This document shows, in pieces, positions 1-50,050 of a DNA stretch of 59,746 nt (position 1 is the stretch's first letter; every line of letters starts with the position of its first letter). The notes under the pieces were generated by a model. It did no database searches, had not been told where the DNA came from, and was given only the letters and a program-made list of their open reading frames with translations. Source of the stretch: a virus (Duplodnaviria; Caudoviricetes); the IMG/VR virus record IMGVR_UViG_3300030060_003581, positions 1 through 59,746 of that record, one strand, 5' to 3'. The position numbers and the translations under genes are program-made.

Positions 1-141
1 CTCTAGGTGAGTAGCCTGTTTGCTATGCAAGTGTTCGTTAGCGATAAGGATGCCGTGTAAGTCCCTTTGCACCGAATCGAACATTTCCATACCAACGGCT
101 AAGGTTTGAATACCAAGACCAAACTTTAGGAATCCGCCCAT
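1..141. repeat. Terminal direct repeat, copy 1 (circular assembly overlap with 59606-59746)
   Basis: 1-141 matches 59606-59746 except at window positions 6 (G vs A) and 64 (C vs T). Confidence 0.97.
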
Positions 142-16335: not shown

Positions 16336-17853
16336 TCATAACCTTACATATTTGCCTTTGGTTGGTCTGCGGTTTATACCTTTTGGTTTTTTGTTTCCTT
16401 TAGTTCCCCACCCACCCATGCTAGTTTTTTTAGAAATCATAGGCATTAGGTCATTTGTTTTTGATTTGAATTGGTCTATTGCGTGTGCAAAAGCCATAAC
16501 TGTATCGTTATGCTTGCCCACATCAACAATATCACCGTTTTTCCAAACATGCGCTTCTAATTCATCAAGAATAATGTTGACTTTTTTTCGTGTAGCGTCA
16601 TCTCCATATGGAAATACTACTAATTCTCTCTCAAACCAAACTCGCAACCTATTCATTAATCCTTGCTTGAGTCCTTTGTTGGATGCTTTAGATGGCTTGT
16701 AATCAACAATTGCGCCTTTTTGCTGAATAACTGTTTCGTAAAGTCGCTGAAAACCTACATCTTCTGCTGCTACTGAACATTTGTATAACTTTGCCCACTC
16801 AATAATAACATCTGCTTGTCTATCCGGCGGGAAATCATTTTTGCGCCACATATCAACAAAATGCACATACCCCTGTTCATCTTGGCGCAAACATATTAAG
16901 ACGGAGTAATCTTTGCCTATACCATGAGCGGGGTCGAATCCGAGGATGAAGGCACTATTGTCCAATTGACTGTTGAAACCACCAACGGCAGTTATGTCTA
17001 TGTTTTTTCTGATGAGATGCCTATTGAACACTTGGGAATCATCGTCCACGACCTTACACAAATACTCCTGTGCGAAAGCGAGGTCGTCGTCTATGCTGAT
17101 TTTCTGTTCCAGCAAAAACTCGGTGGGTCTGAACTCGGCCCACAATGGCAATAAAGGAATATTATCGGGGTCTGCTCTATGCTCATCCCAATTGGGAAAT
17201 GCAGACCAAACTCCCGATTTCCAAACTGCTTTTGCTTTTTCAGATAACATTTCAGTATGATAAAGGTCAGTATGAGACATAGGTGTGCCTACGCAAAATA
17301 ATGATGTGCCGGGGTCTAACATAGGTGTGATTACCTTCTTGAACCACTCAGCAACAGTCTCCATAGTCATGTCACCCATCTCAGCAAGCACATCATCAAG
17401 TGCTACTACCGCAGGGTGTTCACCACGAATAGCAGAACCTACACCGGTTGCTTGAATCCAAGCCCCATTTGTAAATTGTATTCTATTTTTATTTGACTTT
17501 TTTTCATCAAGATACTTTCGTAGTTCGGGATGCCTACGCATATCCGTTTTGATTTCCTCAAGACGATTTGTAGCCTGCCGTATGCTTGCTGAAAATAACC
17601 ATACTTCCATAGGCTGACCGTTGCGCCTTTCAAACAAACACATATGCAGTAGTTTAACTCGAAGTGTAGCAGACTTACTGTGAGAACGGGGGGCAATAAT
17701 ACAGACACGGTGGACTTGAGCGCCCTTTCTATTACCGTATAGTTCCATCCATTCCCCTATATGGTCTGCCCATTTATATTCGGGAGACAACCATTCGTAA
17801 AAATGTCTTATGTCGTGGCGTGAACGCTCGAAGTTAAAGTTAGGCATTACCAT
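16336..17853 (-). CDS. terL: Terminase large subunit
   Basis: Walker A APRSHSKS, Walker B VALDD, GTP coupling motif, nuclease GFDPA and KHNDTVMA motifs. Confidence 0.95.
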   Translation of the reverse strand: MVMPNFNFERSRHDIRHFYEWLSPEYKWADHIGEWMELYGNRKGAQVHRVCIIAPRSHSKSATLRVKLLHMCLFERRNGQPMEVWLFSASIRQATNRLEEIKTDMRRHPELRKYLDEKKSNKNRIQFTNGAWIQATGVGSAIRGEHPAVVALDDVLAEMGDMTMETVAEWFKKVITPMLDPGTSLFCVGTPMSHTDLYHTEMLSEKAKAVWKSGVWSAFPNWDEHRADPDNIPLLPLWAEFRPTEFLLEQKISIDDDLAFAQEYLCKVVDDDSQVFNRHLIRKNIDITAVGGFNSQLDNSAFILGFDPAHGIGKDYSVLICLRQDEQGYVHFVDMWRKNDFPPDRQADVIIEWAKLYKCSVAAEDVGFQRLYETVIQQKGAIVDYKPSKASNKGLKQGLMNRLRVWFERELVVFPYGDDATRKKVNIILDELEAHVWKNGDIVDVGKHNDTVMAFAHAIDQFKSKTNDLMPMISKKTSMGGWGTKGNKKPKGINRRPTKGKYVRL

Positions 17854-19962: not shown

Positions 19963-20124
19963 GCTTCTCAATCTCCAATTATTTCTTCGCCCTGCTTCGG
20001 GCATTTGGGACACGGGGGAGTTTGCTTATATATCCTCCCTCGATTTGCATTAGATTTTGCTTGTTTTACAGACATTTTTGATTCGCCGAGCAACAAATCA
20101 ACAGTATGTAAATAATGTATAAAC

Positions 20125-20144
20125 AGTCTTATACAATAATAAGG
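20125..20144. repeat. 20-bp inter-cassette repeat AGTCTTATACAATAATAAGG, copy 1
   Basis: Exact copies at 20518 and 21041; internal inverted repeat CTTAT-N6-ATAAG. Confidence 0.9.
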
Positions 20145-20159
20145 CATCTATACCCACAT

Positions 20160-20207
20160 AAAAAAAGAGAGAAAAAAAGAGAGAAGCGGGAGGCCGAAGC
20201 CCCCCGC
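20160..20207 (-). terminator. GC hairpin (UUCG loop) plus TCTCTCTTTTTTTCTCTCT tract
   Basis: Directly downstream of ORF 20224..20451. Confidence 0.7.
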
Positions 20208-20223
20208 CCCTCAAAGTCCCTGC

Positions 20224-20451
20224 TCAAGCAGGTCTGTTTAGGTAATATTCACTACCGTTGTCGGATTGCTCAATTTCCATGATTATATCATCAATCATGT
20301 TATCTTTCAATTCCTTGTATGACATGGTTGGATATTCCAACAATTGCCACCTTACGCTCTTTCTTAGGATTTCGCCTAAGTCACTGTCGCTCATGCTCTT
20401 AACAATCTCAACGATTGCTAATGCGTCTTTGTCTATTTTCTGTTCGCCCAC
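20224..20451 (-). CDS. Hypothetical protein (cassette 2)
   Basis: 75-aa ORF with its own TATATA box and terminator. Confidence 0.6.
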   Translation of the reverse strand: MGEQKIDKDALAIVEIVKSMSDSDLGEILRKSVRWQLLEYPTMSYKELKDNMIDDIIMEIEQSDNGSEYYLNRPA

Positions 20452-20517
20452 TTTGGTCGCCTCAATTTACCCGACAGGGTTTCCACATATATACCCTTCG
20501 ATTCTGATAATCTATAT

Positions 20518-20537
20518 AGTCTTATACAATAATAAGG
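20518..20537. repeat. 20-bp inter-cassette repeat, copy 2
   Basis: Identical to 20125-20144. Confidence 0.9.
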
Positions 20538-20582
20538 CTCGCTGTCCCACGAAAGGGAGAGAGAAAAAAAGAGAGAGAAAGG

Positions 20583-20665
20583 GGGGGCGTTTTGGCCTCA
20601 GTCGCCCCCGTGACCGCCTCCATCGGTCAACTGCGGAATCATTCCGGTGATTCGTTCCTCGCTTC
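20583..20665 (-). ncRNA. Unrecognised three-hairpin RNA motif, copy A
   Basis: GAATCA/TGATTC, then CGCAGT, then TGACCG/CGGTCA, then GGGGGCG-ACTGAGGCCAAAA-CGCCCCC; same architecture as 25187-25266. Confidence 0.6.
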
Positions 20666-20682
20666 TTAACATCAGTATGAAA

Positions 20683-20955
20683 TCAATTTTGTTGATTTCT
20701 GATAACTTCGGTTAAAGTGTCTCTAATTGCACACAGACTCAAGTCTGCTTCCTTCTTAGTCATACCTAAATAACGCCCTAGGTATAGTTGGTTGTGCCTG
20801 CGCTCTTTGGTGATAACCCATAACTTGAATGAAATCCCGTTATATTTTGAACCAATCTCCAAATGCAGTTCGTCCGTGCTTTCAATTATACCTAATACTG
20901 TGAGTTTATCCTCAATGATTGAAGTAGTCGCTTTTAACACTCTTTCAGTTGCCAT
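20683..20955 (-). CDS. Hypothetical protein (cassette 3)
   Basis: Start MATERVLK after a GGAGGTGA RBS. Confidence 0.65.
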   Translation of the reverse strand: MATERVLKATTSIIEDKLTVLGIIESTDELHLEIGSKYNGISFKLWVITKERRHNQLYLGRYLGMTKKEADLSLCAIRDTLTEVIRNQQN

Positions 20956-21040
20956 ATTCTTTCTCACCTCCCCGCCTGTGTCTCGTCGGATATTATGAAC
21001 AGCCAAGCCATAGTATATGAAGCCAGCGACTCTAACATAT

Positions 21041-21060
21041 AGTCTTATACAATAATAAGG
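21041..21060. repeat. 20-bp inter-cassette repeat, copy 3
   Basis: Identical to 20125-20144. Confidence 0.9.
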
Positions 21061-21076
21061 ATATTTGCACTCCACA

Positions 21077-21134
21077 AAGGAGAGAGAAAAAAAGAGAGAG
21101 AAGCCCCCCACCCCGCCGAAGTGGGATGAGGGGC
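21077..21134 (-). terminator. GC hairpin plus polypyrimidine tract
   Basis: Same TCTCTCTCTTTTTTTCTCTCTCC tract as at 20160 and 20556. Confidence 0.65.
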
Positions 21135-22200: not shown

Positions 22201-24753
22201 ATGGACAAGGAGATGCAAAATATGTATGCAGCAAACGGAACAGGCGACAGTGTGGTAGGACTACTTCCACTTCTATGGGTATTCATGCTCATGGCAGCGG
22301 TAGTCATTACCATCACTAGAAACAGAATGAATAGACAGATGACAAAGCGTATCGGCTTAGAACTTGAAGTTATCAAGCAAGCACATGCCCGAGAAAGCCC
22401 AAATCAAAAACTTGCTACTTGGCTTGAAATCAAGGGCAAGGAATGGCGACAAATGCAAAAGGAATCATCCTTATTGCATAAACTCAAAGTTCGCTTCATG
22501 GGATACACCCATGAGGTAATTAGTGGCACTAAAATCGTCACTGATTCGTCACTAAATAGTGGCGGCATTGAGATAGTATCACCACCTTTGGAGGGCAATA
22601 ATGCTGATGAATGGATAGACCAAATAGCCTACGGGCTGAAAGGTGTTGCCAATGTTGACTCGTCAACGGGACTTCACCTTCATATTGGACTTAGAGCCCC
22701 GAGTAATAATTGGAGTTCGCATGAATCAGATATTCTAGGGTTAACGGAAGGTAGCGAATACCGTCATGGCTTTTACTTAGCCAAAGCGGTTCTAGGTGCG
22801 ACATTGTTGACCGTTGCTCTATGGCAGCCGGTCTATAACCGAATGGTGGCTAAGTCACGACGAAACGGTCAGTGGAGTCGTGATGTATCCTTCATCCTAG
22901 GCAAATCATTTGTCTCAAGATACTTCCATGAACACAAGGAAAACGGCTACGATGCGGATAAACATGTTCGCTTCCTAAACAAAGTCGCAGACTACTTCAT
23001 TGGAAATGGAGATAGATATTATTGCGTTAATTCGCAAGCCTTTGAGCGATATGGAACCATTGAGTTCCGCAGCCATCAAGGCACAACCAATGCTCGCAAA
23101 ATCAAGGGCTGGGTTGATATGCACTATTTGTTAGTTCAACGATGCACAAATGAGTCGTGGTTAGACATTTTAGACTATAACCATGAATCAATCACAGACT
23201 TCTTTGGGTTCTTAGGAGTGTCACCATCAGACGACCTGTTTAGGCAGCAAGTCAGAAGGATTCGCAAACTAAACCCAAACAATCTCAATACAGTGTTTCA
23301 GCATGACCCACAACTAGGACTAGAACATCTATTCCAACACAGTGATTCATGCTCGGTATGCAAGTCAACAACTTGCGACCACGATGATGAATGCGGTTCT
23401 AAACCAAGTGTCAAACTTGGCAATCAAATCGCAAGGCATTTCGTCCAAAGTCGTCACATGAACTGTGATAACTGTGGTGAATACTCACTGCGAGATATAG
23501 AGCGAGGCGGATATGACATAGATTGGTATGACAATCATGCCGATGCTTACTGTCCGTCGTGTGATACTATACGGTCATTCTCAATGTCAACTACTTGGCT
23601 TGGTGGACTGTTCTTGTCACTAATGTTTGGTATCAGCCCAATGCTACTACTTACGGTAGGGTGTGGGATTGGTGCTATTCATGTAGCAAGGCGAAAGTTC
23701 CGAGAGCGAAACCTAGCAACCAAGTTGCTTAGGGCACTTCAAGTGAGAGGCGGCCAAGCCGCTGGATATGCCTTCAACAAAGGCAAGCAAGTCTTCTATC
23801 TGAAAATGGCAAGACCTGCTTCCTATGTAGCAAACAAAATCCGAAAGGACATTACTCCCAAGGAAACAAATTGGTGGCTCGGTCACACAAGGTTCGCTAC
23901 TCATGGAGCAAACAATGACAAGAATGCACACCCACATTTTAGTCGTGAAGTGGATATAACCCTAGTTCACAACGGGGTAGTTCACAACCACGACGATGTG
24001 TGGAAGGCACTCGGCCAAGAGCCAACCGGCGAGGTTGATTCACAGGCCGTAGCACAGTGCTTACAGGTCGGTGGCATCGAGGAAGTTGTCAAACACTGCG
24101 AAGGGTCAATGTCACTCATATGGCATGACAAACGCAGCGGAGAAGGCACTCTGAAATGTTGGACTAACGGTGGAAATCCATTAGTCATGGGTCGAATAGA
24201 CGATAGCAAGACGGGTGCGGTAGTAATCGCATCAACTGAGGCTATACTCAAGCAAGCCGTCGGCAAGCGACTCAAGACCTCATGGGATGCTACCATAGGC
24301 CGTGAATACACAATCCAAGCAGATGGAACGATAACCAAGCGTGACATTGAGGGTAGTGAAGCAACGGCTGGTATCACATACGATTGGAGGACATACACAT
24401 ATCTCCCCAAGAAGACAGTTACCAAAGGTGGCAAGCAAACTCCCGTCAAGAAGCAATCAAAACCGAAGCCGGTTAGGAAATACAAGCCTAGGCCGCCAAG
24501 GTGGGTTGTTGACCAAGCCAAGTCCGACTTAGAACTTGGCGAAATGGGCTTCCCAAGCCGAGCCGGTTATCACGGCTATGACGCCAAGAAGCACATGGGA
24601 GTTCGTCCCGATGGTGGCATGTATGACCTACCACAATATCTGAACCCATACGCATATGCGGATGACCTAGTGGAAGTCCTTCGGGGCGACCATGAGGGAT
24701 TCGTAGCGACCAATTGGGATTCATGCGAGTGGCGTGACTACTACATCAACTGA
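22201..24753 (+). CDS. Membrane-anchored amidoligase (COOH-NH2 ligase type) fused to class II glutamine amidotransferase
   Basis: IGLELE, DSSL, EIVSPPL, GLHLHIG, RYYCVN, TIEFRSHQGT amidoligase motifs; Zn-finger Cys pairs; TM segments; CGIG, RG..AAG, GHTRFATHG, NAHPH, HNG, DS GATase-II motifs. Confidence 0.85.
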   Translation: MDKEMQNMYAANGTGDSVVGLLPLLWVFMLMAAVVITITRNRMNRQMTKRIGLELEVIKQAHARESPNQKLATWLEIKGKEWRQMQKESSLLHKLKVRFMGYTHEVISGTKIVTDSSLNSGGIEIVSPPLEGNNADEWIDQIAYGLKGVANVDSSTGLHLHIGLRAPSNNWSSHESDILGLTEGSEYRHGFYLAKAVLGATLLTVALWQPVYNRMVAKSRRNGQWSRDVSFILGKSFVSRYFHEHKENGYDADKHVRFLNKVADYFIGNGDRYYCVNSQAFERYGTIEFRSHQGTTNARKIKGWVDMHYLLVQRCTNESWLDILDYNHESITDFFGFLGVSPSDDLFRQQVRRIRKLNPNNLNTVFQHDPQLGLEHLFQHSDSCSVCKSTTCDHDDECGSKPSVKLGNQIARHFVQSRHMNCDNCGEYSLRDIERGGYDIDWYDNHADAYCPSCDTIRSFSMSTTWLGGLFLSLMFGISPMLLLTVGCGIGAIHVARRKFRERNLATKLLRALQVRGGQAAGYAFNKGKQVFYLKMARPASYVANKIRKDITPKETNWWLGHTRFATHGANNDKNAHPHFSREVDITLVHNGVVHNHDDVWKALGQEPTGEVDSQAVAQCLQVGGIEEVVKHCEGSMSLIWHDKRSGEGTLKCWTNGGNPLVMGRIDDSKTGAVVIASTEAILKQAVGKRLKTSWDATIGREYTIQADGTITKRDIEGSEATAGITYDWRTYTYLPKKTVTKGGKQTPVKKQSKPKPVRKYKPRPPRWVVDQAKSDLELGEMGFPSRAGYHGYDAKKHMGVRPDGGMYDLPQYLNPYAYADDLVEVLRGDHEGFVATNWDSCEWRDYYIN

Positions 24754-25165: not shown

Positions 25166-25186
25166 ATCGTAACTTCGGTAATTTGA

Positions 25187-25266
25187 GAGGAAATGGAACT
25201 ACCCCTGCCTTATGGGGTCGCAGTTGGCTTTGAGGTAGCCAAGGCCGGACTGAGGACAAAACCGGC
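25187..25266 (+). ncRNA. Unrecognised three-hairpin RNA motif, copy B
   Basis: ACCCC/GGGGT, then CGCAGT, then TGGCT/AGCCA, then GCCGG-ACTGAGGACAAAA-CCGGC. Confidence 0.6.
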
Positions 25267-25312
25267 ATCCAATTCACAATTTCCTACTCCCTAACGGGAG
25301 GGTGAACATAAC

Positions 25313-26035: not shown

Positions 26036-26351
26036 AACGAGGCACTGCGAGCCTATATCTGCAAGAATCTGAGCAAAAATGCAAAAAATCTCGGCAATTG
26101 TGTATGATGGAGTAGGTAAATCAGGTGTTTCTAGCAACACCTAGTATCTCCTACTACCACCTACATTGAAGTAACAACTCCCACGATTTCCGCACGAACT
26201 CGGCAAATCCGGCGACACACCCACAAGGCCAGCCGAAATCTATACATACACAACGGCGCAGTGTGCGCCCCGACCTATCAAACTTTAACTACCAACTACG
26301 CCAACAACTTGATATACCGGCAGCCCCCTAATTAGAAGCAAGGTGAGCAAG

Positions 26352-26465
26352 ATGAACCAACTAACAAACATAAAAACTAGCGAGTGCGGAATATACTGCG
26401 CTACTTGTAACTACAATGTAGCCTTTTGGTCGCACGAAACTTGCGAGAAGGAGGAATTGGCATGA
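26352..26465 (+). CDS. Small Cys-containing early protein (37 aa)
   Basis: Not in track; AGGTGAG RBS and upstream early-promoter motif. Confidence 0.45.
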   Translation: MNQLTNIKTSECGIYCATCNYNVAFWSHETCEKEELA

Positions 26466-26570
26466 TTCGAGTCAACCACAAGATTTGGGCGGTTTGGGTC
26501 GTGGTAACACTGCCAATCGCTATACTGAACCTGCTTTTGTATATCACAGGAGTAGTTCAACTAAAGTAAA

Positions 26571-26649
26571 GTATATATAGGGGCAACCCCCATATACTAA
26601 ACATGGGGCGACACCCGCCCCGACACAGAAAAAAACAGGAGGAATATAC
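26571..26649 (+). promoter_or_regulatory. Early promoter, stem-loop and RBS module
   Basis: GTATATATAGGGGCAACCCCCATAT, GGGGCG/CGCCCC hairpin, ACAGGAGGAAT; related copies at 26311, 27444, 28120, 30420 and about 31320. Confidence 0.7.
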
Positions 26650-26826
26650 ATGGAAAAAACATACACAGTAACAATAACATACGAAGCAACAATAACGACC
26701 GAACAGACCGCAGAGGACATTGAGAATGCCCTTTGGGTAGGCGACCTTGAGATAGGACGGTTAGACATTATGCCAAGCACAAGCATTCGTGGAGATGCGG
26801 TGGACTACGACATACAGGAGGAATAA
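26650..26826 (+). CDS. Hypothetical early protein (58 aa)
   Basis: Not in track; MEKTYTVTITYEAT...QEE; strong RBS. Confidence 0.6.
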   Translation: MEKTYTVTITYEATITTEQTAEDIENALWVGDLEIGRLDIMPSTSIRGDAVDYDIQEE

Positions 26827-26828
26827 AC

Positions 26829-27161
26829 ATGACACCTAGGGCAACAACAGTTACAGAACTAGAGCAGATGCTAGGAAAAGTTCAGCACGAACTAGACAAC
26901 ATAAATGAGTCTAGCATACCGCAGGGCAGCCTACTCTTTTGGAAGGTGGCTCTTGAGACACAGATACGAGACATAGGGGAATCTAAGAGTAAAATACCTT
27001 CGGACTTCACTCAGACATCGGACTTCAATGAGAACGGCTGGCTTGACGATGTGATATATGTTGAGGGTCAAGCGTATCGGGCGGGTTACGGCAGACCTAG
27101 AACTTTCAGACACAGAAGGATTCTGAGACCCATACCAAGGAATGAGGGGGACTCACAATGA
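26829..27161 (+). CDS. Hypothetical early protein
   Basis: ORF with GGAGG RBS. Confidence 0.65.
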   Translation: MTPRATTVTELEQMLGKVQHELDNINESSIPQGSLLFWKVALETQIRDIGESKSKIPSDFTQTSDFNENGWLDDVIYVEGQAYRAGYGRPRTFRHRRILRPIPRNEGDSQ

Positions 27162-27346
27162 TGACAGACATGAGAGGAATTGCTGGCGTGTGGATTGACC
27201 TACATGGCCGCAAGGTATTCAAACACAAGATTGACAACACTCAGTATGCGCCTACAAACGCTTACGGTGGCAATAGCACATGGTATCTGATGATTGAGCA
27301 AGATGGTCGGACTTGGCTTTGGGACGGCTGGATTACGGAGGGATGA
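27158..27346 (+). CDS. Hypothetical early protein
   Basis: ORF overlapping the previous stop. Confidence 0.55.
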   Translation: MMTDMRGIAGVWIDLHGRKVFKHKIDNTQYAPTNAYGGNSTWYLMIEQDGRTWLWDGWITEG

Positions 27347-27443
27347 AAAATGTCAGCGTGGTTACACATACAACAGGCTTACAAATGCCGCAACTGCGGC
27401 GAAGTCAAACTGAGGCATTCGTGGGAAAAATGCGATTGCCAAA

Positions 27444-27510
27444 GTATATATAGGGGAAGCCCCCATATTACAAATAGAGGCGGGACACCTGCCAACAAGG
27501 AGGAATGAAC
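27444..27510 (+). promoter_or_regulatory. Early promoter, stem-loop and RBS module
   Basis: GTATATATAGGGGAAGCCCCCATATT, GGCGGG/CCTGCC hairpin, AAGGAGGAAT. Confidence 0.7.
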
Positions 27511-27696
27511 ATGACAAAAAATAAAATGATTTTAGCGCAGATGAAAAGACAACTGAACATACTCGAAGGAGTTAGCACAGATTTGCTTTCATTGAAGAAC
27601 ATAGGAATGATAGATAGTGACGACTATTCAGCAATAGACCACCACATTTGGTCAATAGAATCGCTGATAAAACACAATATGGAACAGGAGGAATAA
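27505..27696 (+). CDS. Hypothetical early protein
   Basis: ORF after the promoter module. Confidence 0.6.
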   Translation: MNMTKNKMILAQMKRQLNILEGVSTDLLSLKNIGMIDSDDYSAIDHHIWSIESLIKHNMEQEE

Positions 27697-27698
27697 AC

Positions 27699-28199
27699 AT
27701 GAGAACAGAACGAGAATACGGACTAGAAGCAAGAATAATACTGAAAAAACTACAAGACGCAGGGTGCGAGTTAATCAAGACAGGCGACTCATATGGGGAT
27801 GAATACTACGACATACCATGTAAGGGACTGAGTATTGGTAAAATCGCATACAACCTATGGAATCTTGAGGACTCAATGCTGCTTGTCAGAAACCCCGAAG
27901 GGCATTTGGCATGGGCAAGATTCATCTTCGGCAACGGCTGGGGTGAATTGGTTGGTGACTACTCAACCAACCTGCTAGGCAAATCTTTGCCTTGGGAAGA
28001 ATCACGAAAGCGTGAGCAAGAAGTAGGGATATGGGACTACCAAGATTGGAGAATCAACGATGTTCTCGACTTCTTTGGAATCAAAAAGAAGTTCACAGAC
28101 ATAATTGATGAGGCGACAAGTATATATACCGATGACCCCCATATTAGTAATGAGGGCGGCGACTCAGACAACGCCGACACAAAAACACAGGAGGAATAA
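27699..28199 (+). CDS. Hypothetical early protein
   Basis: Start MRTERE after ACAGGAGGAATAAAC; 3' end overlaps the next promoter module. Confidence 0.65.
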   Translation: MRTEREYGLEARIILKKLQDAGCELIKTGDSYGDEYYDIPCKGLSIGKIAYNLWNLEDSMLLVRNPEGHLAWARFIFGNGWGELVGDYSTNLLGKSLPWEESRKREQEVGIWDYQDWRINDVLDFFGIKKKFTDIIDEATSIYTDDPHISNEGGDSDNADTKTQEE

Positions 28200-28201
28200 A
28201 C
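28120..28201 (+). promoter_or_regulatory. Early promoter, stem-loop and RBS module embedded in a CDS end
   Basis: GTATATATACCGATGACCCCCATATT...CGCCGACACAAAAACACAGGAGGAATAAAC. Confidence 0.65.
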
Positions 28202-29458
28202 ATGAACAAAAAAGCAACAACAATAAGAATGACGAAGAACGAAAAGGACAATATGCAACTGCATCTTGCCGCCCGAGGGCTAGGAGAAGTGCAAGCGGCA
28301 ATCGCCAATGAGTTCAACAGACAACACGCCGACTTCGACTGCAACGCTGAGTTTGATGGCAATTGGCCTAACAAGACGCTGAAAAAGGGTCTCAAAATGG
28401 AATCATATAGTATCGGAAGGGGCTCATTTCCACAAATCTCGGTCAACTTCGCTTGGACACCGGAGTATGTCAAGAAGCAGACCGAAGATGCCAAGAGGCT
28501 GAATCGCAGGCCGTATCTATACGGTGCAGGTCAATACCGACCACACAACCCAGCGATTACTGACAAGGCTGGCAAACCAACCAACCATGATGACGGCACA
28601 CCTAAGCACCGCTGGGAGTGGACGCCATACATCGAAGCAGGTATCGAAACCCACATGGACAACTGCTTGAAGGCGGCAATTGCAGCCACAAAGCGTGACT
28701 TGACCGAGAGCGAAGTAAAATACGGTCGTGACGGGAGAGCGCAAGAGGTATACAATATCGTGCAAAAACTACAAAGATTTCAAGCCTACATCGAGTTGGA
28801 CAATAGATACTACGGACACCCAGCAAGAACCCTTGTATCAAAGCGAGCAAACCCATACTCAAACCAGCACTATGTCTTGCGTGGAGAGGGCTGGAACTCA
28901 AGCGATAGCGACTACTACACATACCGCCTACTCGGGCTTGGTTTGAAGTGGTCTGTAATCAACAAGGGCAAACAGATTCTCGAAGCATTAAACAATATGC
29001 ACACTGCTTACAACAGATACCTTAGTAAGAAAAGTAATCAGAAATACACTCAGACCAATGTAGGTAACTACGAGAAGAATGTGGGACTCAACGAGCAAGC
29101 CTACGAGGACTTAATCAAGAGGGTCACTAACGATGGCGAAATCACAGTGGAGAATGCTATCCAAAACGACAACACAAAGAGGAATGCGGTCACTGAATAC
29201 TTCAAGAACATACCACACCCTGATATGCTTCACGGAGGCACAGTGACACCTTCATTCTGCATGATTTCGGTTAGCGAGCGTATCACCGCCGCCAAGAACC
29301 GCATCGTGCAAAGCAAGGCTATATTAGCCCGTGAGCAAGGTCGTCTGAGTGAAGAAACATCAGACCTACCTAAGTTGGAGTGGCAAATCGCACTGATGAA
29401 AGTCGAAAAAGTAGCCACACAATACGGACTACTAAACAACGGAGGGGAGGAAGAATGA
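28202..29458 (+). CDS. Hypothetical early protein (418 aa)
   Basis: Long ORF with a strong RBS; no family recognised. Confidence 0.8.
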   Translation: MNKKATTIRMTKNEKDNMQLHLAARGLGEVQAAIANEFNRQHADFDCNAEFDGNWPNKTLKKGLKMESYSIGRGSFPQISVNFAWTPEYVKKQTEDAKRLNRRPYLYGAGQYRPHNPAITDKAGKPTNHDDGTPKHRWEWTPYIEAGIETHMDNCLKAAIAATKRDLTESEVKYGRDGRAQEVYNIVQKLQRFQAYIELDNRYYGHPARTLVSKRANPYSNQHYVLRGEGWNSSDSDYYTYRLLGLGLKWSVINKGKQILEALNNMHTAYNRYLSKKSNQKYTQTNVGNYEKNVGLNEQAYEDLIKRVTNDGEITVENAIQNDNTKRNAVTEYFKNIPHPDMLHGGTVTPSFCMISVSERITAAKNRIVQSKAILAREQGRLSEETSDLPKLEWQIALMKVEKVATQYGLLNNGGEEE

Positions 29459-29622
29459 ACACGCACTGCTCGTATAACCAATATCAGAAAATCGAGTGGG
29501 TGCATTGGGCATTACAAGAGGCCATCAATGGTAATACTGATGAGGCTATGTTGACACAGGCGTTGGAGTTGGTCGAGGATATTAGGGAAATTGTGGTAAC
29601 GGAGGTGATGAAGAATGATTGA
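29455..29622 (+). CDS. Hypothetical early protein
   Basis: MNTHCSY start overlapping the previous stop; GGAGG RBS. Confidence 0.55.
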   Translation: MNTHCSYNQYQKIEWVHWALQEAINGNTDEAMLTQALELVEDIREIVVTEVMKND

Positions 29623-29790
29623 CGAAGGACAGACCTGTGCTTACTGCGAAGAAGCAATTGAAGGGGAAGTAACAATGACTACCTACGGAACACCGTATCA
29701 TCATTACTGCGCTGACAAATTGATTACCATGAAGCATCAAGGCTACGATGGTCTTGACGAAGAAGATATTGCATATTGGGGTGAGGAAAA

Positions 29791-30075
29791 ATGAAACTGA
29801 GCGAAAGCCGAATGTGGTGGAGTAAAGAGCATAAGGAATGGTATGTGCAGGTTGCATCAGACCATGAGCGAGCCATGTTCCGCCCCGATTGGTGGGAGGG
29901 AACTGAAAAAGTTCTCAGCAAAGGCTACGATTACAGTAACAAGTATGGTTGGTTCATCATTGTCGGTGTGCCACTCAAGCAATACTTGAAGCACCACCCC
30001 GAAGATGTGTATTTAGCACAGGGCGTGTTAGATGACATCAAAAAGCGTGACGATAGGAGGCTTAACAATGTCTAA
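29791..30075 (+). CDS. Hypothetical early protein
   Basis: GGTGAGG RBS; Trp-rich. Confidence 0.6.
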   Translation: MKLSESRMWWSKEHKEWYVQVASDHERAMFRPDWWEGTEKVLSKGYDYSNKYGWFIIVGVPLKQYLKHHPEDVYLAQGVLDDIKKRDDRRLNNV

Positions 30076-30174
30076 CGATACAGGCTATGTAATAGTGATT
30101 GAGGAACTGATAAAGCAACTCGTAAAAACGAGAGGACAGTTGGCAGAAGCCCTTGAAAAATTGGAGGCGTTAGA

Positions 30175-30411
30175 ATGATGAGCGACCACCAAGATTCAGA
30201 ACACTTCATGGGAGTGCGTAGCGAAAGCGAGTTGCTCGACATGCTTGACCGAGCCGAGCGCAAACAAAATGAACATTACGCATACATACATATCGTGAGT
30301 AAAAAGGCTCGAAAGATGTATCACATGAGGAATTACAAAGCACTTGAGGGCGTGGTAAAGACACTGCGCTGGTGCTTGGGTGACAAGGAGGTTGAACACC
30401 CATTAGAGTGA
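30175..30411 (+). CDS. Hypothetical early protein
   Basis: GGAGG RBS; ALEGVVKTLRWCLG motif. Confidence 0.6.
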   Translation: MMSDHQDSEHFMGVRSESELLDMLDRAERKQNEHYAYIHIVSKKARKMYHMRNYKALEGVVKTLRWCLGDKEVEHPLE

Positions 30412-30464
30412 CCGGTGACTATATATACCGGAAGCCCCAATATAGAAACAAGGAGAGGAATGAT

Positions 30465-33019: not shown

Positions 33020-33045
33020 TATAGTGGCGTGACCAAAGTTTGTAT

Positions 33046-33124
33046 TGGGGAGGGGGTTAGAACTTCTATGTTCTATTTCCTCAAACTTGGTTGCTTGCTT
33101 CGTTCCTCGCTTGCCCCCTCCCCA
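33046..33124 (+). ncRNA. Structured leader/sRNA closed by an 11-bp stem and exposing two TTCCTC sites
   Basis: TGGGGAGGGGG (33046-56) pairs with CCCCCTCCCCA (33114-24); upstream GATATAGTGGCG promoter-like motif. Confidence 0.55.
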
Positions 33125-33143
33125 CCAACTTTGAGGTGATATT

Positions 33144-33425
33144 ATGAGAAGAAGTAGTAAGTTTATTTTTGCAGATGAAGTAGCACGAATGTTGATTGAA
33201 AACCCGAAGGGTATGTCGTCATACGAGATATACAATAAACTCGTTGATGACAACTTCAAGTGGTTGCCGTCACGGAACACCATTGGCTCTAGGCTGAGCG
33301 CAATAGGTGGCTTCGAGGCAATAGGAGTAACCACAGGGTATTCTCTAAGAACAACAAGAGAGGTAACGATGTGGACTCTTGACTTGAAAAAGTTTAATGC
33401 TTGGAGGTATAAGGATGCTCGGTGA
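33144..33425 (+). CDS. Winged-HTH DNA-binding protein
   Basis: GMSSYEIYNKL...PSRNTIGSRLS...W wing pattern; GAGGTGA RBS. Confidence 0.65.
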   Translation: MRRSSKFIFADEVARMLIENPKGMSSYEIYNKLVDDNFKWLPSRNTIGSRLSAIGGFEAIGVTTGYSLRTTREVTMWTLDLKKFNAWRYKDAR

Positions 33426-34179
33426 ACCGGCCATCATACCTTTGAAGCACATTGAATACACCATCACACACCCATACACCCGCAATCATAGAGGGGAGTG
33501 GGTGCAAAAGCCTTACATTGTAATAAAAGGTAGGTATAAAACCTACACTTTGTTAGGAAAAAAGGTGATGTGGTCGTATTTTGATGCACTTTTCAGTAAA
33601 GAACCGCTGCCAAGGCAGGCCGTCAATGACGACATATTCTCTCCCGAGATTGACTCTCCATCGTTGTTTAGTTTGCTAGACGACTTTACAAGCGAGAGCA
33701 TATCCGAAGGGACTGAATACTTGATAGCATACCATGTTGATGGTGACATTACTTATGTCGAGCCATTTGACCAAGGGCTTGTGACCGATATAGAAATGAT
33801 GTATCATTATCTAAAGAGTGAGGGATTGACTCCCGAGAAAAAACCATTCTTGTATAGGGGCAACAATGCGTCTATCAGACCATCAGTTTGTTTTCAATAC
33901 AATGATTGGGACATTTACTTTGTTGACATAGGCACTCGCTGGTATATACGAGGCGAAGGCTTGGCGTCAACAGGCAGAAGAATAGGGCTAACTATGCCCG
34001 AGAGTATTCTCAAGTCAAAGAAGAATGATGTAGCGAATGCTTTCAAAAGATTATTGTCTTATGCTGATAGCGTCAGACCAAATAAATTACATTGGCCTGC
34101 GACCGCACCACGATTACCAAGTGGACTCAAGACGCATGAGCAAGACCGATTATTAGTAAATAGGAGGTCGAATATATAA
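33397..34179 (+). CDS. Hypothetical protein (260 aa)
   Basis: Long ORF; the likely start is MLGEPA after GGAGG. Confidence 0.7.
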   Translation: MLGGIRMLGEPAIIPLKHIEYTITHPYTRNHRGEWVQKPYIVIKGRYKTYTLLGKKVMWSYFDALFSKEPLPRQAVNDDIFSPEIDSPSLFSLLDDFTSESISEGTEYLIAYHVDGDITYVEPFDQGLVTDIEMMYHYLKSEGLTPEKKPFLYRGNNASIRPSVCFQYNDWDIYFVDIGTRWYIRGEGLASTGRRIGLTMPESILKSKKNDVANAFKRLLSYADSVRPNKLHWPATAPRLPSGLKTHEQDRLLVNRRSNI

Positions 34180-34184
34180 TACTT

Positions 34185-34430
34185 ATCGTATTAAGTTAAT
34201 TAAGTTTAGAACTTCAAACTTAAAAAAAAGCAATACGGAATGCTACAACCGCTAATTAAGTTATTATGTCTAATATGTTTATCATTAGGCCACTAATACT
34301 ACTTAGTTATATTATAGTTATATTATTAAATTAATAACTTAATAGACTAAAAAACTTAATTCAGCATATCGGGATTCAGTAAAGCGTTTATTTAAGTTAC
34401 AGAATCTAAACTTAATGAACTTAATTCGGT
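34185..34430. other. Candidate replication origin
   Basis: AT-rich intergenic region with 9 TTAAGTT/AACTTAA heptamers, upstream of the replication cluster. Confidence 0.6.
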
Positions 34431-34435
34431 AACTG

Positions 34436-34450
34436 TTAAATACTGACGAG
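34436..34450 (+). promoter_or_regulatory. Middle promoter motif (TATA plus CTGACGAG)
   Basis: TTAAATACTGACGAG; copies at 39548, 44220 and 46502. Confidence 0.7.
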
Positions 34451-34467
34451 GGATTGGTGATAATTAC

Positions 34468-39547: not shown

Positions 39548-39561
39548 TATATACTGACGAG
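39548..39561 (+). promoter_or_regulatory. Middle promoter TATATACTGACGAG
   Basis: 14 nt before the RFC ATG (leaderless spacing). Confidence 0.75.
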
Positions 39562-44247: not shown

Positions 44248-46494
44248 ATGCAAGTAACACATACAAGCGGAAGAAAAGTAACTATCAGAAGGCGTGACCC
44301 CGACACTCTTGAGCGCATTCAAGAAGTGATAGAGGCTTACCCCTACTGCTTTGTTCCTACTGAAAAGTTAACTGATACTTACGGTTTGGTAAGGGTCGAA
44401 GAAGGATTTGAAGGAGTATATGGCACTAAGTTATCTAAGGTGTATTTTAGAAACGAATACGACCGTAGGGATTGGGCTAGGGCTAACCACACTTGGGAAG
44501 GCAGTATGCCTTTTACTAACCAAGTTCTTATTGACAGGTTGAAGGACAATGAACCATACCCTAATTACGAACACAGGATATGGTATATTGACGGTGAGTG
44601 GAAAAAAGAGTCTGAGGAAATAACTATCCTCAGTGCTTACGATTCCTACACCGGTAAAATGTTCACATGGGTTCAGCACCCCGATATTGAGCCGGGATAC
44701 CATAGTAGTTTGCCCTGTAAGAATCACCCCGATGGTTTGAAAGAAATCCATTTCGATACAAAACTGAAAGCGTTTGCTAATGAGCGTCAACTGCTGGCTG
44801 ACTTTGCAGCACATATGGCTAAACATGACCCCGATGTGTTGACCGGTTGGTATTTTGTTGACGCTGATGTATCAACAATCAGCACTCGTATGCGTAGGCT
44901 TGGGCTTGACCCACGCAGATTATCGCCGCACAATCAGCATAACTACAAATACAGTGCTACTGAAAAGCGTTGGACTCAGCCCATTCCCGGTCGCATGTGT
45001 ATTGACTTGATGATTGCATTCAAGAAGTTATGGACTATCAAAAACGGTCAATTAGCAGGGCAAAAGTTAGATGATGTTGCGGAGTTTGTATTAGGTGAGC
45101 GCAAGGTCGAGTTAGAAGATGGGCATGATACCTATTATACCGACATAGGCACATACATTGACTACAATAGACAAGATGTGCGTCTTTTACCTAGACTAGA
45201 TGAGGAAATAAATGCTATCAATTACTACACTTCACTGCAACACTTAGTTCAGTGCGACATAGAGACTACTCCTTTGACCACGCTGCCCTCGTCATGCCTA
45301 TTCTTACAGGATGAACAGTTCGATGGTCGCATTCCCGATAACCCAAGGTTCAACAAGATTGACTACGAGGGCGCTGACATACAAGAGCCTGTTCCGGGTC
45401 GTTATGAGAACATGGCAATCATGGACATTAAGGCCATGTATCACTCTAATGTAAAGTTGCATAACATATGCTGGACTACTCTTAGTGACGACGGAAAAGA
45501 CTGTGGTAATGGCAGTAAGTTCTCACAGGAAAAGTCGGGATTGTTAGGTAGGACTATGGATAAATTGACAGTCAAGCGTAATGAATACAAGGCTTTGATG
45601 AAACAGGCCACCACTGCTGCTGAGAAGCGCAAGTGGGATGCTATGCAGTTTGCTACCAAATCAATGGTTGCGTCCCTATATGGTGTATCCGGTGACTCAA
45701 AATACGGCATGTATCACCCCGATATAGCGTCTGCTATTACATACACAAGCAGGCAGACTTTATTCCGCTTGCGTGATGAGTGTAATGAGCGTGGTTATCC
45801 TGTTAGATACGGACATACCGACTCTATCTTTTGCGAAGTTCCTAGTCCCGAAGAAGGCATGGGACTTGTTGCTAAAATTAACAAGGCTATGCACCCAATA
45901 GAAACTGAGTTCGAGAAGTGGTGTGCTACTATGATACTAAAACGCAAGAATCGTTACGCTGGTAAGGTCACATGGACTGATGGACAGTATCACGACCCGC
46001 AGTATTATTACAAAGGTCTTGAGTTAAAACAAGCCCGTATGCCGAAGGCTATGAAACAGGCTATGGATAAGACCTTGCGTGGTATTCTTGATGGGGCAGA
46101 CCGTCAGCAGGTTGACTCCGAACTTATTTCCCTTATAATGAAAGGAAATGAAGGTCAACTCGGTGAGGACTTGTTGCAGATTGGCAAACTCAAGATGCCT
46201 CTATCCCGTTACAAAAGTATCAGTGGCGCAGCCGCAGGTGCGCTTTGGGCTAAACAATACTTAGATAAGCGATACGAACCGGGCGAGACCTTTTTGACAG
46301 CGATTGGGGCTGGTGGGCAATACTATGCGTTTGACAAACTAAAGGACTTAGAGGGCGTCGCTAAGATTGATTGGTCGGAGATGACTGAGCGATTCATTGT
46401 CAACAAGGCTTGTGACATTTATGACTTGGTTGAATGGGACACTCAGCCGCTATGGAACGCTCATAGAGGCATTGGTAATGTCGAATGGTTATAA
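44248..46494 (+). CDS. polB: Family B DNA polymerase
   Basis: ExoI IDGE, ExoIII YNRQD, motif A DIKAMYHS, motif B KSMVASLYG, motif C YGHTDS, KNRYAG, KGLE. Confidence 0.95.
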   Translation: MQVTHTSGRKVTIRRRDPDTLERIQEVIEAYPYCFVPTEKLTDTYGLVRVEEGFEGVYGTKLSKVYFRNEYDRRDWARANHTWEGSMPFTNQVLIDRLKDNEPYPNYEHRIWYIDGEWKKESEEITILSAYDSYTGKMFTWVQHPDIEPGYHSSLPCKNHPDGLKEIHFDTKLKAFANERQLLADFAAHMAKHDPDVLTGWYFVDADVSTISTRMRRLGLDPRRLSPHNQHNYKYSATEKRWTQPIPGRMCIDLMIAFKKLWTIKNGQLAGQKLDDVAEFVLGERKVELEDGHDTYYTDIGTYIDYNRQDVRLLPRLDEEINAINYYTSLQHLVQCDIETTPLTTLPSSCLFLQDEQFDGRIPDNPRFNKIDYEGADIQEPVPGRYENMAIMDIKAMYHSNVKLHNICWTTLSDDGKDCGNGSKFSQEKSGLLGRTMDKLTVKRNEYKALMKQATTAAEKRKWDAMQFATKSMVASLYGVSGDSKYGMYHPDIASAITYTSRQTLFRLRDECNERGYPVRYGHTDSIFCEVPSPEEGMGLVAKINKAMHPIETEFEKWCATMILKRKNRYAGKVTWTDGQYHDPQYYYKGLELKQARMPKAMKQAMDKTLRGILDGADRQQVDSELISLIMKGNEGQLGEDLLQIGKLKMPLSRYKSISGAAAGALWAKQYLDKRYEPGETFLTAIGAGGQYYAFDKLKDLEGVAKIDWSEMTERFIVNKACDIYDLVEWDTQPLWNAHRGIGNVEWL

Positions 46495-49321: not shown

Positions 49322-50050
49322 ATGCTAGTAGTTGATGACCGAGAGAACGACCTTTTGATTCACAAACTCTATGCTTCTATGGGCAATCACGATGATGGCG
49401 GCCATGTTAAAGTAAAGCGGCTACAATCCGCAGATTACATCATAGGTAACATAGGAATAGAGGCCAAAGAGATAAATGACTTGTATCACTCTATTATGGG
49501 TCACGGTCGCTCTCGGACTATTGTAGGGCAACTGATGGACTTACAGGAAAACTTTGAGCGACCTATGCTTGTAGTTTATGGAACTCAATTAAAACCTTAC
49601 ATTCCCGGGGGCAGACCTAACCGACAACAAATGGCGAGAGAGATAAAGAAGATGAACGCAGTAATCAAAAAGTTCAAGCAGAATCTAATTATACAATTCC
49701 CAAATATACAATACATGGAACTGTCAAGCATGGATGACATGGTTGATTGGCTTTCGTCTGTGCATCACAATTTAAGAATCCGAAGGATGCCTGTCGCAGA
49801 ACCGAGAGAGAAGACAAAAAGTTCCAATAGGAAAATTGATTTGCGAGTTAGAGTCTTGTCATCCATAGAAGGAATATCCGAGAGAGCCGCACATGACTTG
49901 TTAACCGAGTTTGGCTCAATTCCACGCTTGTTGCGCTCTCGCACAAGCCAGCGAAAACTCATGGAGATAGACGGCATAGGGCGCAAAAGAGCCAAGGCTA
50001 TTCTATCCCTGCGTGAACGCTATCCCGACCAGCCCGAACCAAAAGACTAA
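49322..50050 (+). CDS. ERCC4/XPF-family nuclease with C-terminal HhH repeats
   Basis: VDDRE, ADY, IEAKE, IEGISE and IDGIGRKRA. Confidence 0.85.
   Translation: MLVVDDRENDLLIHKLYASMGNHDDGGHVKVKRLQSADYIIGNIGIEAKEINDLYHSIMGHGRSRTIVGQLMDLQENFERPMLVVYGTQLKPYIPGGRPNRQQMAREIKKMNAVIKKFKQNLIIQFPNIQYMELSSMDDMVDWLSSVHHNLRIRRMPVAEPREKTKSSNRKIDLRVRVLSSIEGISERAAHDLLTEFGSIPRLLRSRTSQRKLMEIDGIGRKRAKAILSLRERYPDQPEPKD

Follow-up and report, generated by a model that had tools for sequence, protein, structure and literature searches.

A probable conserved, structured leader RNA in a Caudoviricetes virus and its possible pairing with two RNAs encoded in the same genome

Introduction

In the rpoS leader, an upstream pyrimidine stretch covers the ribosome-binding site, and DsrA and RprA pair with this stretch and thereby free the site, a mode of control referred to as anti-antisense activation. 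The leader pseudoknot of T4 gene 32 is the translational operator of a phage replication gene, and c4 RNA contains two separate complementary segments. The c4 RNA of phages P1 and P7 is described as a structured phage small RNA that targets the ant leader in trans, by way of short stretches of complementarity at and near the ribosome-binding site (PMC12197685). The same source describes the OOP RNA of phage lambda and the sar RNA of phage P22 as phage antisense RNAs that control phage genes by base pairing, and the trans-encoded viral RNAs that it names as pairing with genes of their own virus come from a handful of temperate coliphages and comprise c4, sar, OOP and a few others (PMC12197685). 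CisR is reported to be a host-encoded small RNA that is derived from a 3' end and targets the cep mRNA of CTXphi (PMC13250501).

Here, we describe a leader of about 97 nt from a virus of the Caudoviricetes (IMG/VR record IMGVR_UViG_3300030060_003581). The window, by which we mean the whole stretch of DNA that was analysed, is 59,746 nucleotides long. Two sites in the leader are complementary to the 5' segments of two copies, A and B, of a three-hairpin RNA motif located elsewhere in the window (Table 1). The locus resembles c4 and ant in that a structured phage RNA would act on the leader of a phage mRNA, with the pairing in our case predicted from sequence. It differs in that P1 and P7 use one RNA with both segments, in the setting of lysogenic immunity, whereas here two RNAs with separate seeds would act on a single replication-side leader; c4 and ant have no sequence or Rfam relation to the window leader. 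The logic proposed below for copy B and site 1 is the same as that of rpoS, but the occluding pairing is a predicted pseudoknot here and lies over the ribosome-binding site only in the group of leaders to which the window belongs. CisR resembles the elements described here in its placement at a transcription unit's 3' end, with a terminator hairpin; copy A also ends in a terminator-like element. CisR is encoded by the host, whereas both partners are viral here. The T4 gene 32 leader is similar in being a structured leader, with a possible pseudoknot in our case, placed before a gene for a nucleic-acid-binding protein at the head of the replication functions; there is no sequence relation between the two and the comparison is one of leader layout only. 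OOP and sar are encoded in cis opposite their targets and are fully complementary to them, whereas the partners considered here lie 8 and 12.5 kb away from the leader and match it over 13-14 nt. Control of this leader by A and B would be of a known kind, built from two RNA structures that have not been described before; the nearest known logic is that of c4 and ant together with small-RNA activation of an occluded leader as in rpoS.

Genome and relatives

The ends of the window overlap (positions 1-141 and 59606-59746; 141 nt with a 99% match), which corresponds to a genome of about 59.6 kb. The minus strand carries the structural genes, including that of the large terminase (16336-17853), and a long plus-strand block (22.2-50 kb) includes the gene of a family B DNA polymerase (44248-46494). 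When the polymerase and the terminase were compared with cultured viruses, the best full-length matches were weak (22-27% identity); haloarchaeal tailed viruses are among them, and an archaeal host is possible for the virus of the window. None of eight window proteins matched any PHROGs family. Among the candidates scored, the polymerase has 352 relatives at E <= 1e-20, many of them on contigs of 60-70 kb. Sequencing runs that contain the window sequence are labelled marine, and no RNA runs were found among them. A collection of genomes that was scanned for the leader core and for the 428-aa protein encoded nearby contained no match to either and gave no clue to the host.

The downstream proteins and the core sequence both served to find relatives of the leader, which are treated here as two groups. 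The window group comprises the window, L001, L033 and L002, with identical leaders in L001 and L033. The second group comprises L037, L038, L043 and L059; a comparison of L037 and L038 with the window gave 84% identity for the 428-aa neighbour protein. L038 lies on a contig of 24.8 kb (G001), and L043 and L059 lie on two records that are both rated 100% complete (G004 and G005, respectively). Seven leaders were compared: those of the window, L001, L002, L037, L038, L043 and L059. A metagenome scan with the winged-helix alignment yielded one locus, the leader of which is identical to that of L001, and a scan of IMG/VR with the stem pattern GGGGAGGGGG...CCCCCTCCCC matched 27 stretches, only two of which are relatives. 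Four DNA runs were also compared; one of these (X2) is nearly identical to the window, and two (X4 and X7) contain relatives that span copies A and B as well as the leader.

Table 1. Coordinates in the window of the leader elements, the gene that follows them and the two motif copies.
Feature	Positions	Strand	Description or basis
Promoter-like motif ATAGTGGCGTGA	33021-33032	+	Member of the seven-copy family ATA[CG]TGNCGNG
P1 5' arm GGGGAGGGGGT	33047-33057	+	Pairs with 33113-33123; probable 5' end of the transcript
P2 hairpin (TAGAAC, loop TTCTAT, GTTCTA)	33058-33075	+	3' arm forms the left half of site 1
Site 1 GTTCTATTTCCTC	33070-33082	+	13 nt with one G.U against the copy B 5' segment GAGGAAATGGAAC (25187-25199)
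Conserved single-stranded core TTCCTCAA(ACTT)GGTTGCTTGCTTCGTT	33077-33104	+	Alignment of seven leaders
Site 2 TTCGTTCCTCGCTT	33099-33112	+	Perfect 14-nt complement of the copy A 5' segment
P1 3' arm GCCCCCTCCCC	33113-33123	+	Followed by ACCAAC, not by a T run
Linker with Shine-Dalgarno-like GAGGTGA (33133-33139)	33124-33143	+	Core-linker duplex energy
Predicted winged-helix gene (93 aa) served by the leader	33144-33425	+	ORF list, AlphaFold model
Motif copy A	20580-20677	-	Pairing segment 20664-20651; 78.7 bits with model R1 (training sequence)
Motif copy B	25176-25271	+	Pairing segment 25187-25199; 91.1 bits with model R1 (training sequence)

Promoter-like motif and downstream gene

The leader sits on the sense strand between a promoter-like motif and a start codon, upstream of GAGGTGA-N4-ATG, and shows stronger conservation than the coding sequence that directly precedes it. 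All seven copies of the promoter-like motif in the window are on the plus strand, are confined to 33-46.5 kb and are each located upstream of a plus-strand gene, and the motif is conserved in all relatives. This repetition, together with the position of the copies, suggests that the motif is a promoter. At the six other copies an ATG follows within 15-36 nt, at +25 or +26 in three of the six. At the leader, the first G of the closing stem is found 26 nt after the ATA in all seven sequences, and in the window a leader of about 97 nt then follows; the transcript probably starts at or near G33047.

The 93-aa protein encoded after the leader was modelled by AlphaFold with a pLDDT of 80.7 and has the layout H-H-H-beta-beta-H. 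The top rows of a Foldseek search with this model are winged-helix DNA binders, with a best E of 0.026 and none at or below 0.001, and the protein matched no Pfam and no PHROG family. The gene that follows (33397-34179) overlaps the winged-helix gene by 29 nt.

Structure of the leader

The segment is very probably a conserved, structured cis leader RNA. An earlier note on this DNA, made from the sequence alone, had described the leader of the first winged-helix gene of the replication region as closed by an 11-bp stem. The stem (P1) is confirmed as ten Watson-Crick pairs plus one T.G, and the reading as a structured plus-strand leader at the head of a replication-side operon is supported by the relatives, with P1, a small hairpin (P2) and the core conserved in all seven leaders. 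In the window group P1 consists of GGGGAGGGGGU/GCCCCCUCCCC; in the second group its 5' arm reads GGAG(T/C)AGGGTCGAGA (in RNA, GGAG(U/C)AGGGUCGAGA) and remains complementary to the 3' arm of the same leader. P2 is present in the MFE folds of all seven leaders and keeps its position directly 5' of an unpaired UUCCUC. The P2 stems have five different sequences (one shared by the window and L001, one each in L002, L037 and L038, and one shared by L043 and L059), and P1 has two sequence types. The conservation of P1 and P2 was read from individual MFE folds; in MAFFT alignments neither the variable hairpin nor a 1-nt bulge in P1 is placed correctly.

The core is pyrimidine-rich, has weak pairing or none in the MFE folds and is invariant in the seven leaders save for a 4-nt insert in the window group. 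It is unique in the window, even with three mismatches allowed. Each of the seven folds contains between one and four G.U pairs, which become A.C mismatches on the opposite strand, and this argues for an RNA of the plus strand. The z-scores of the fold energies against shuffled sequences are modest (-0.5 to -1.9). Applied to four sequences of the L037 group, RNAalifold gave a different consensus, in which the 5' arm pairs with the core, with no compensatory pairs.

Several other assignments were considered and rejected. No Rfam family matched the window at the gathering score, and at E <= 10 the leader and its L037 homologue gave only sub-threshold noise from miRNA, thermometer and lncRNA families. 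The segment does not have the form of an intrinsic terminator, as 55 nt lie within the stem and ACCAACTTTGAGG comes after it, with no U run. A leader peptide could be encoded by an ORF of 23 codons (ATG at 33069 to TGA at 33138-33140), the start of which is GTG or TTG in L001 and L002; in addition, a 4-nt indel shifts the frame with respect to L037 and L038 although the nucleotides are conserved. A replication origin is not indicated by a leader that is rich in G/C and in pyrimidines and has a core that is unique in the genome. A better candidate for an origin is located 1 kb downstream (34180-34467), where an AT-rich spacer of 290 nt contains 69-nt inverted repeats.

The linker between P1 and the start codon may fold back onto the core to form a pseudoknot. 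In the window, residues 33124-33137 can pair with residues 33078-33092 of the core at -14.5 kcal/mol, a value that is reached by a fraction of 0.008 of 500 linker shuffles. A core-linker duplex can be formed in all seven leaders, with energies of -12.5 to -15.5 kcal/mol that are equalled by fractions of 0.004-0.10 of 500 linker shuffles, the weakest support (0.10) being that of L037. In the window group, UCCUCAAACUUGGU pairs with ACCAACUUUGAGG(U) in a helix that takes in the GAGG of the ribosome-binding site; its single C.C mismatch becomes a pair in L002 through a C-to-G change. The helix of the second group pairs GGUUGCUUG with CAAGCAA(Y)(Y) and ends about 13 nt before the ribosome-binding site. 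The putative pseudoknot is modelled on few sequences, and those of the window group are the only ones in which it would cover the ribosome-binding site.

Motif copies A and B

Copies A and B each consist of a single-stranded 5' segment that contains GAGG, followed by three hairpins, the second of which has the conserved loop GAGGU. The last hairpin of copy A, together with a pyrimidine run, is terminator-like. RNAalifold of five motif copies showed changes on both sides in nine of 13 pairs. A covariance model of the motif identified two copies in the window, two in the related contig L004 and one each in G001, G004 and G005, all of which are training sequences except those of G004 and G005. 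A terminator-like hairpin with a pyrimidine or U run is present at or after the motif in five of these seven copies, a count in which the G005 copy was folded only in part; copy B of the window is without one.

L004 is the one relative with both copies, and its contig ends before the leader. In this single relative 12 of the 14 nt of the A pairing segment and ten of the 13 nt of the B pairing segment are kept; the conserved blocks of the 5' segments, AAGCGAGGAACG in A and TTGAGAGGAAATGG in B, are the pairing parts, and the flanks have diverged. The gene beside copy A has no relatives in IMG/VR. A scan with the A-type seed pattern matched 60 stretches, among which only the L004 contig has the motif. 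In a scan with the loop pattern of the motif at least 79 loci were examined, and L004 is the sole match among those listed; the known copies of G001, G004 and G005 are not among the matches listed, and the scan is no measure of how rare the motif is.

Complementarity within the genome

Both pairings that the earlier note had pointed out between the leader and the motif were reproduced: site 2 is a perfect complement of the copy A 5' segment over 14 nt, and site 1 pairs with the copy B 5' segment over 13 nt with one G.U. The 14-mer of site 2 is identical to 20651-20664 on the plus strand and so complements a minus-strand RNA from copy A. The first 8 nt of site 2 belong to the conserved core, and its final 6 nt (TCGCTT) are a feature of the window group alone. 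The duplex of site 1 and B is made of eight Watson-Crick pairs, one G.U and four further Watson-Crick pairs, and only TTCCTC(AA) of site 1 is conserved across the lineages. Both sites are largely unpaired in the MFE fold of the leader, and the 5' segments of A and B lie upstream of the first motif hairpin.

The match between leader and motif was picked out after a reading of the whole genome. The earlier note had raised the possibility that it is no better than chance for purine-rich sequences that resemble ribosome-binding sites; in four tests the matches exceed chance. Among 3191 pairs of GAGGAA and TTCCTC sites, counted in both mirror orientations, perfect extension to at least 14 nt was found only for site 2 and A, for one unrelated pair (3811/16129) and for the repeated family of ribosome-binding sites at 26.6-28.2 kb. 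With one G.U allowed, each leader site finds its best partner among 56 candidates in its motif segment, and each motif segment, again among 56, in its leader site, at 14 nt versus 10 nt for the next-best partner in the case of site 2 and A and at 13 nt versus 10 nt in the case of site 1 and B. Without the G.U, the run shared by B and site 1 is 8 nt, is not that of the best partner and is equalled by a fraction of 0.27 of the null windows. In a genome-wide scan of duplex energies on both strands, the leader came third among 7917 windows with the 5' part of A and first among 7916 with that of B. A perfect complement of the leader of at least 13 nt occurs in four of 2974 windows of 160 nt, all four of which cover copy A. 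Cofolding with the leader gains -14.3 kcal/mol for A and -6.4 kcal/mol for B, or -8.4 and -5.2 kcal/mol, respectively, with longer flanks. Judged by these sequence comparisons, the complementarity of leader and motif is greater than chance in this genome.

Complementarity in relatives

The earlier note had gone on to suggest a trans-acting RNA circuit. The predicted accessibility of the sites, the above-chance complementarity and the conserved seed blocks of L004 are in keeping with such a circuit, but the pairing segments are not conserved in the second group. There the TTCCTC of site 2 has been lost (TTCCTT in L037, L043 and L059; TTTCTA in L038), and copy A, the second copy of the motif, is absent from the complete genomes G004 and G005. 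In the three relatives that have both elements, pairing of the B-type 5' segment with the leader of the same genome extends over only 4-7 nt (7 nt in G001, 5 nt in G004 and 4-5 nt in G005). The leader ranks 173rd of 3332 windows in G001, 805th of 8088 in G004 and 1345th of 7999 in G005 for this segment, and the cofold gains are only -1.2 to -4.5 kcal/mol, none of them at the TTCCTC site; these ranks refer to the 5' part of the motif only and the first cofold ended at the last hairpin, so that the tail complement described next is outside both.

In G001, G004 and G005 the 11 nt AAACACACAAA, located directly 3' of the last motif hairpin, are perfectly complementary to UUUGUGUGUUU in the leader. 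This leader sequence is inside a conserved single-stranded insert of 15 nt between P1 and P2; the window group is without the insert, and the tail of copy B in the window is without the ACACA word. The fraction of null windows that reach 11 nt is 0.020 in G001, 0.011 in G004 and 0.0066 in G005, and because the three genomes share the tail complement by descent they represent one event. Within the tail, AAACAC is predicted to take part in an extended terminator stem, which has 9 bp in G004 and 6 bp in both G001 and G005. The two RNA elements are thus complementary to each other in both lineages, through different segments, and each segment pair is present or absent together, which constitutes co-variation at the level of segments, not of nucleotides. 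Compensatory changes of single nucleotides were not seen among these relatives, none of which combines an altered seed with a sequenced leader.

Proposed mechanism and alternatives

The explanation that we favour, tentatively, is that of a structured leader of about 97 nt with docking sites for the A and B RNAs. It would be the 5' leader of the first operon under a 'middle' promoter class of the virus, in which the winged-helix gene is followed by replication genes. The RNA from about G33047 would fold into a G/C-rich P1, a small variable P2 and a large loop with the pyrimidine-rich core, and the core and the 14 nt that follow P1 would pair to place a pseudoknot over GAGG, presumably with low basal translation as the result. 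Two open segments of the loop would dock the conserved single-stranded 5' segments of the structured viral RNAs A and B, each of which is located where a small transcription unit ends, close to the strand switch. Binding of B to 33070-33082 would open P2 and draw UCCUC off the ribosome-binding site, and translation would be activated. Binding of A to 33099-33112, beside the 3' arm of P1, might either hold the loop open or create a duplex of 14 bp on which a double-strand nuclease could act. Whether A and B would raise or lower expression is a guess, and their own expression as RNAs is presumed. We consider it plausible, with some reserve, that the pairing in trans of the leader with A and B is functional.

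An extension of docking to the whole clade appears rather doubtful. It would amount to a modular RNA-RNA circuit in which the three-hairpin RNA and the leader stay paired while segments are swapped between lineages, the duplicated copy providing a two-input gate that times the switch to replication. The link would run from the 5' seed to the loop site in the lineage of the window and from the 3' tail to the loop insert in the other lineage. The three-hairpin RNA would end early transcription units, and the clade would be one of abundant uncultured marine viruses.

There is a real chance, although we would not expect it, that the leader works purely in cis, alone or bound to a protein, and that the matches to A and B are coincidences between a TTCCTC-rich loop and GAGG-rich RNAs. 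In such a case the 5' stem could protect the mRNA, and the core or the pseudoknot could be bound by the winged-helix product or by a translational repressor. A leader of this type would agree with structure, core and core-linker pairing that are kept in every leader compared next to an extended complementarity that is lineage-specific, with the lack of conservation of TTCCTC in site 2, with the unrelated GAGGAA/TTCCTC pair that also reaches 14 nt and with a B/site 1 match that is unremarkable once G.U is disallowed. However, it requires two coincidences within one 98-nt leader, both with an independently defined motif and both reciprocal best among the 56 candidates, and a further independent complement of 11 nt in the second lineage; moreover, it is in the parts that pair that the 5' segments of A and B have their conserved blocks.

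It is improbable that the relation is instead one at the level of DNA, in which the words of 13-14 nt would be operators or linkers of mosaic recombination and the hairpin a cruciform or an element of an origin. Read on the plus strand, the word shared with A recurs in direct orientation and that shared with B in inverted orientation, and a double-stranded site would tolerate both; the downstream gene encodes a predicted winged-helix protein, and the X4 and X7 contigs lose similarity exactly at 20664, the end of the 14-mer, with the neighbouring gene replaced by 499 other letters. Against this, the G.U pairs in P1 and P2 of all seven leaders fit a plus-strand RNA and not DNA or the minus strand, and the core occurs once in the genome. 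The two types of word share only GAGGAA yet match their partners at 14 of 14 or 12 of 13 positions, unlike the operators of one protein, and a far better candidate for an origin is present 1 kb downstream. The further suggestion of the earlier note, that the leader is an anti-RBS sponge, whose two TTCCTC sites would titrate early mRNAs in general at their GAGGAA ribosome-binding sites, is very improbable: TTCCTC does complement GAGGAA, and the word ACAGGAGGAATAAACATG is common to the ribosome-binding sites of four early genes, but these copies (26639, 26818, 27688 and 28191) are outside the best six of 56 partners for either site, only one TTCCTC is conserved across the lineages and a match of 6 nt is too short for specificity.

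Conclusions

If the docking of A and B on the leader is functional, RNA-RNA timing circuits exist well outside the model phages, here in a group of marine viruses with genomes of about 60 kb, two RNA copies can converge on one leader, and the partners can stay linked while they exchange their pairing segments. Even without the part played in trans, the leader and the three-hairpin motif would add two conserved structures, previously undescribed, to the known viral RNAs, and both are now amenable to modelling and to searches.

Three-hairpin RNA motif and gene cassettes

The loops GAGGU and CUGAG-N-CAAA are conserved in the three-hairpin RNA motif, and changes on both sides were found at nine of its 13 predicted pairs. 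Two copies are present in the window and L004 (a related locus) lineages and one in the other lineages. In related loci of the second leader lineage (L037, L038, L043 and L059), the structured leader RNA ahead of the winged-helix gene carries a conserved insert, CTTTTGTGTGTTTCTC, which is also similar to the 3' flank of the terminator that these genomes have behind their three-hairpin motif.

At 20–21 kb a repeated unit lies between tiny minus-strand genes, three or four in number, and this arrangement is also present in L004 and in L040, another related locus. The units resemble terminator–promoter cassettes. In contigs from two marine sequencing runs, X4 and X7, the similarity to the window ends exactly at 20664 and restarts at 21037, with 499 other letters between the breakpoints. 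The small gene 20683–21036, flanked by the three-hairpin motif and the promoter cassette, is a replaceable cassette.

Coordinates of the features described (window positions unless a related locus, contig or record is named)
Feature	Sequence	Position	Strand	Remarks
Three-hairpin motif	window	20580-20677	-	
Three-hairpin motif	window	25176-25271	+	
Three-hairpin motif	L004	7990-8085	-	
Three-hairpin motif	L004	12932-13026	+	
Three-hairpin motif	L040	3436-3528	-	
Three-hairpin motif	G004 (L043 record)	16960-17054		
Three-hairpin motif	G005 (L059 record)	50873-50966		
Leader insert CTTTTGTGTGTTTCTC	L037	3725-3740		conserved; equivalents in L043, L059
Leader insert CTTTTGTGTGTTTCTC	L038	3738-3753		
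Repeated unit	window	20120-21102	- (sense)	G/C hairpin, long CT-rich run (TTCTCTCTCTTTTTTTCTCTCTCC), word GCCTTATTATTGTATAAGACTATA
850-aa protein	window	22201-24753	+	amidoligase domain (PF12224), class-II glutamine amidotransferase domains
42-nt word AAGTATATATAGGGGnnnCCCCCATAT...	window	26306-30458	+	five copies
AT-rich 290-nt spacer	window	34180-34467		69-nt inverted repeats, 77% complementary
2332-aa ORF	window	50047-57045	-	
Second long ORF	window	57056-59746 into 1-1395	-	spans record ends, follows 2332-aa ORF

Genome form, long ORFs and candidate origin

A direct repeat of 141 nt at the window ends (1–141 versus 59606–59746, 99% identical) suggests that the genome, of ∼59.6 kb, is circular or terminally redundant, although the record is classed as linear in IMG/VR. 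The 2332-aa ORF matched no PHROG family in a PHROG search. The gene for the 850-aa protein opens the plus-strand block, and its product is conserved, with identities of 65% in L004, 49% in G001 (the contig that contains L038) and 35% in L005 (a further related locus). The AT-rich spacer, in which ACTTAAT-like words are repeated, lies immediately upstream of the next promoter-like motif and is a candidate replication origin.

Promoter-like words

Each copy of the 42-nt word is followed downstream by a small plus-strand gene, and four of these genes share the ribosome-binding-site word ACAGGAGGAATAAACATG; the 42-nt word represents a second promoter-like class in the window. The first class, ATA[CG]TGNCGNG, has plus-strand copies at 39551, 44223 and 46505 in which the distance from ATA to ATG is 25–26 nt, the same as that from ATA to the first stem base in the leader. 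If transcription starts 25–26 nt past the ATA, the mRNAs from these three sites would be leaderless.
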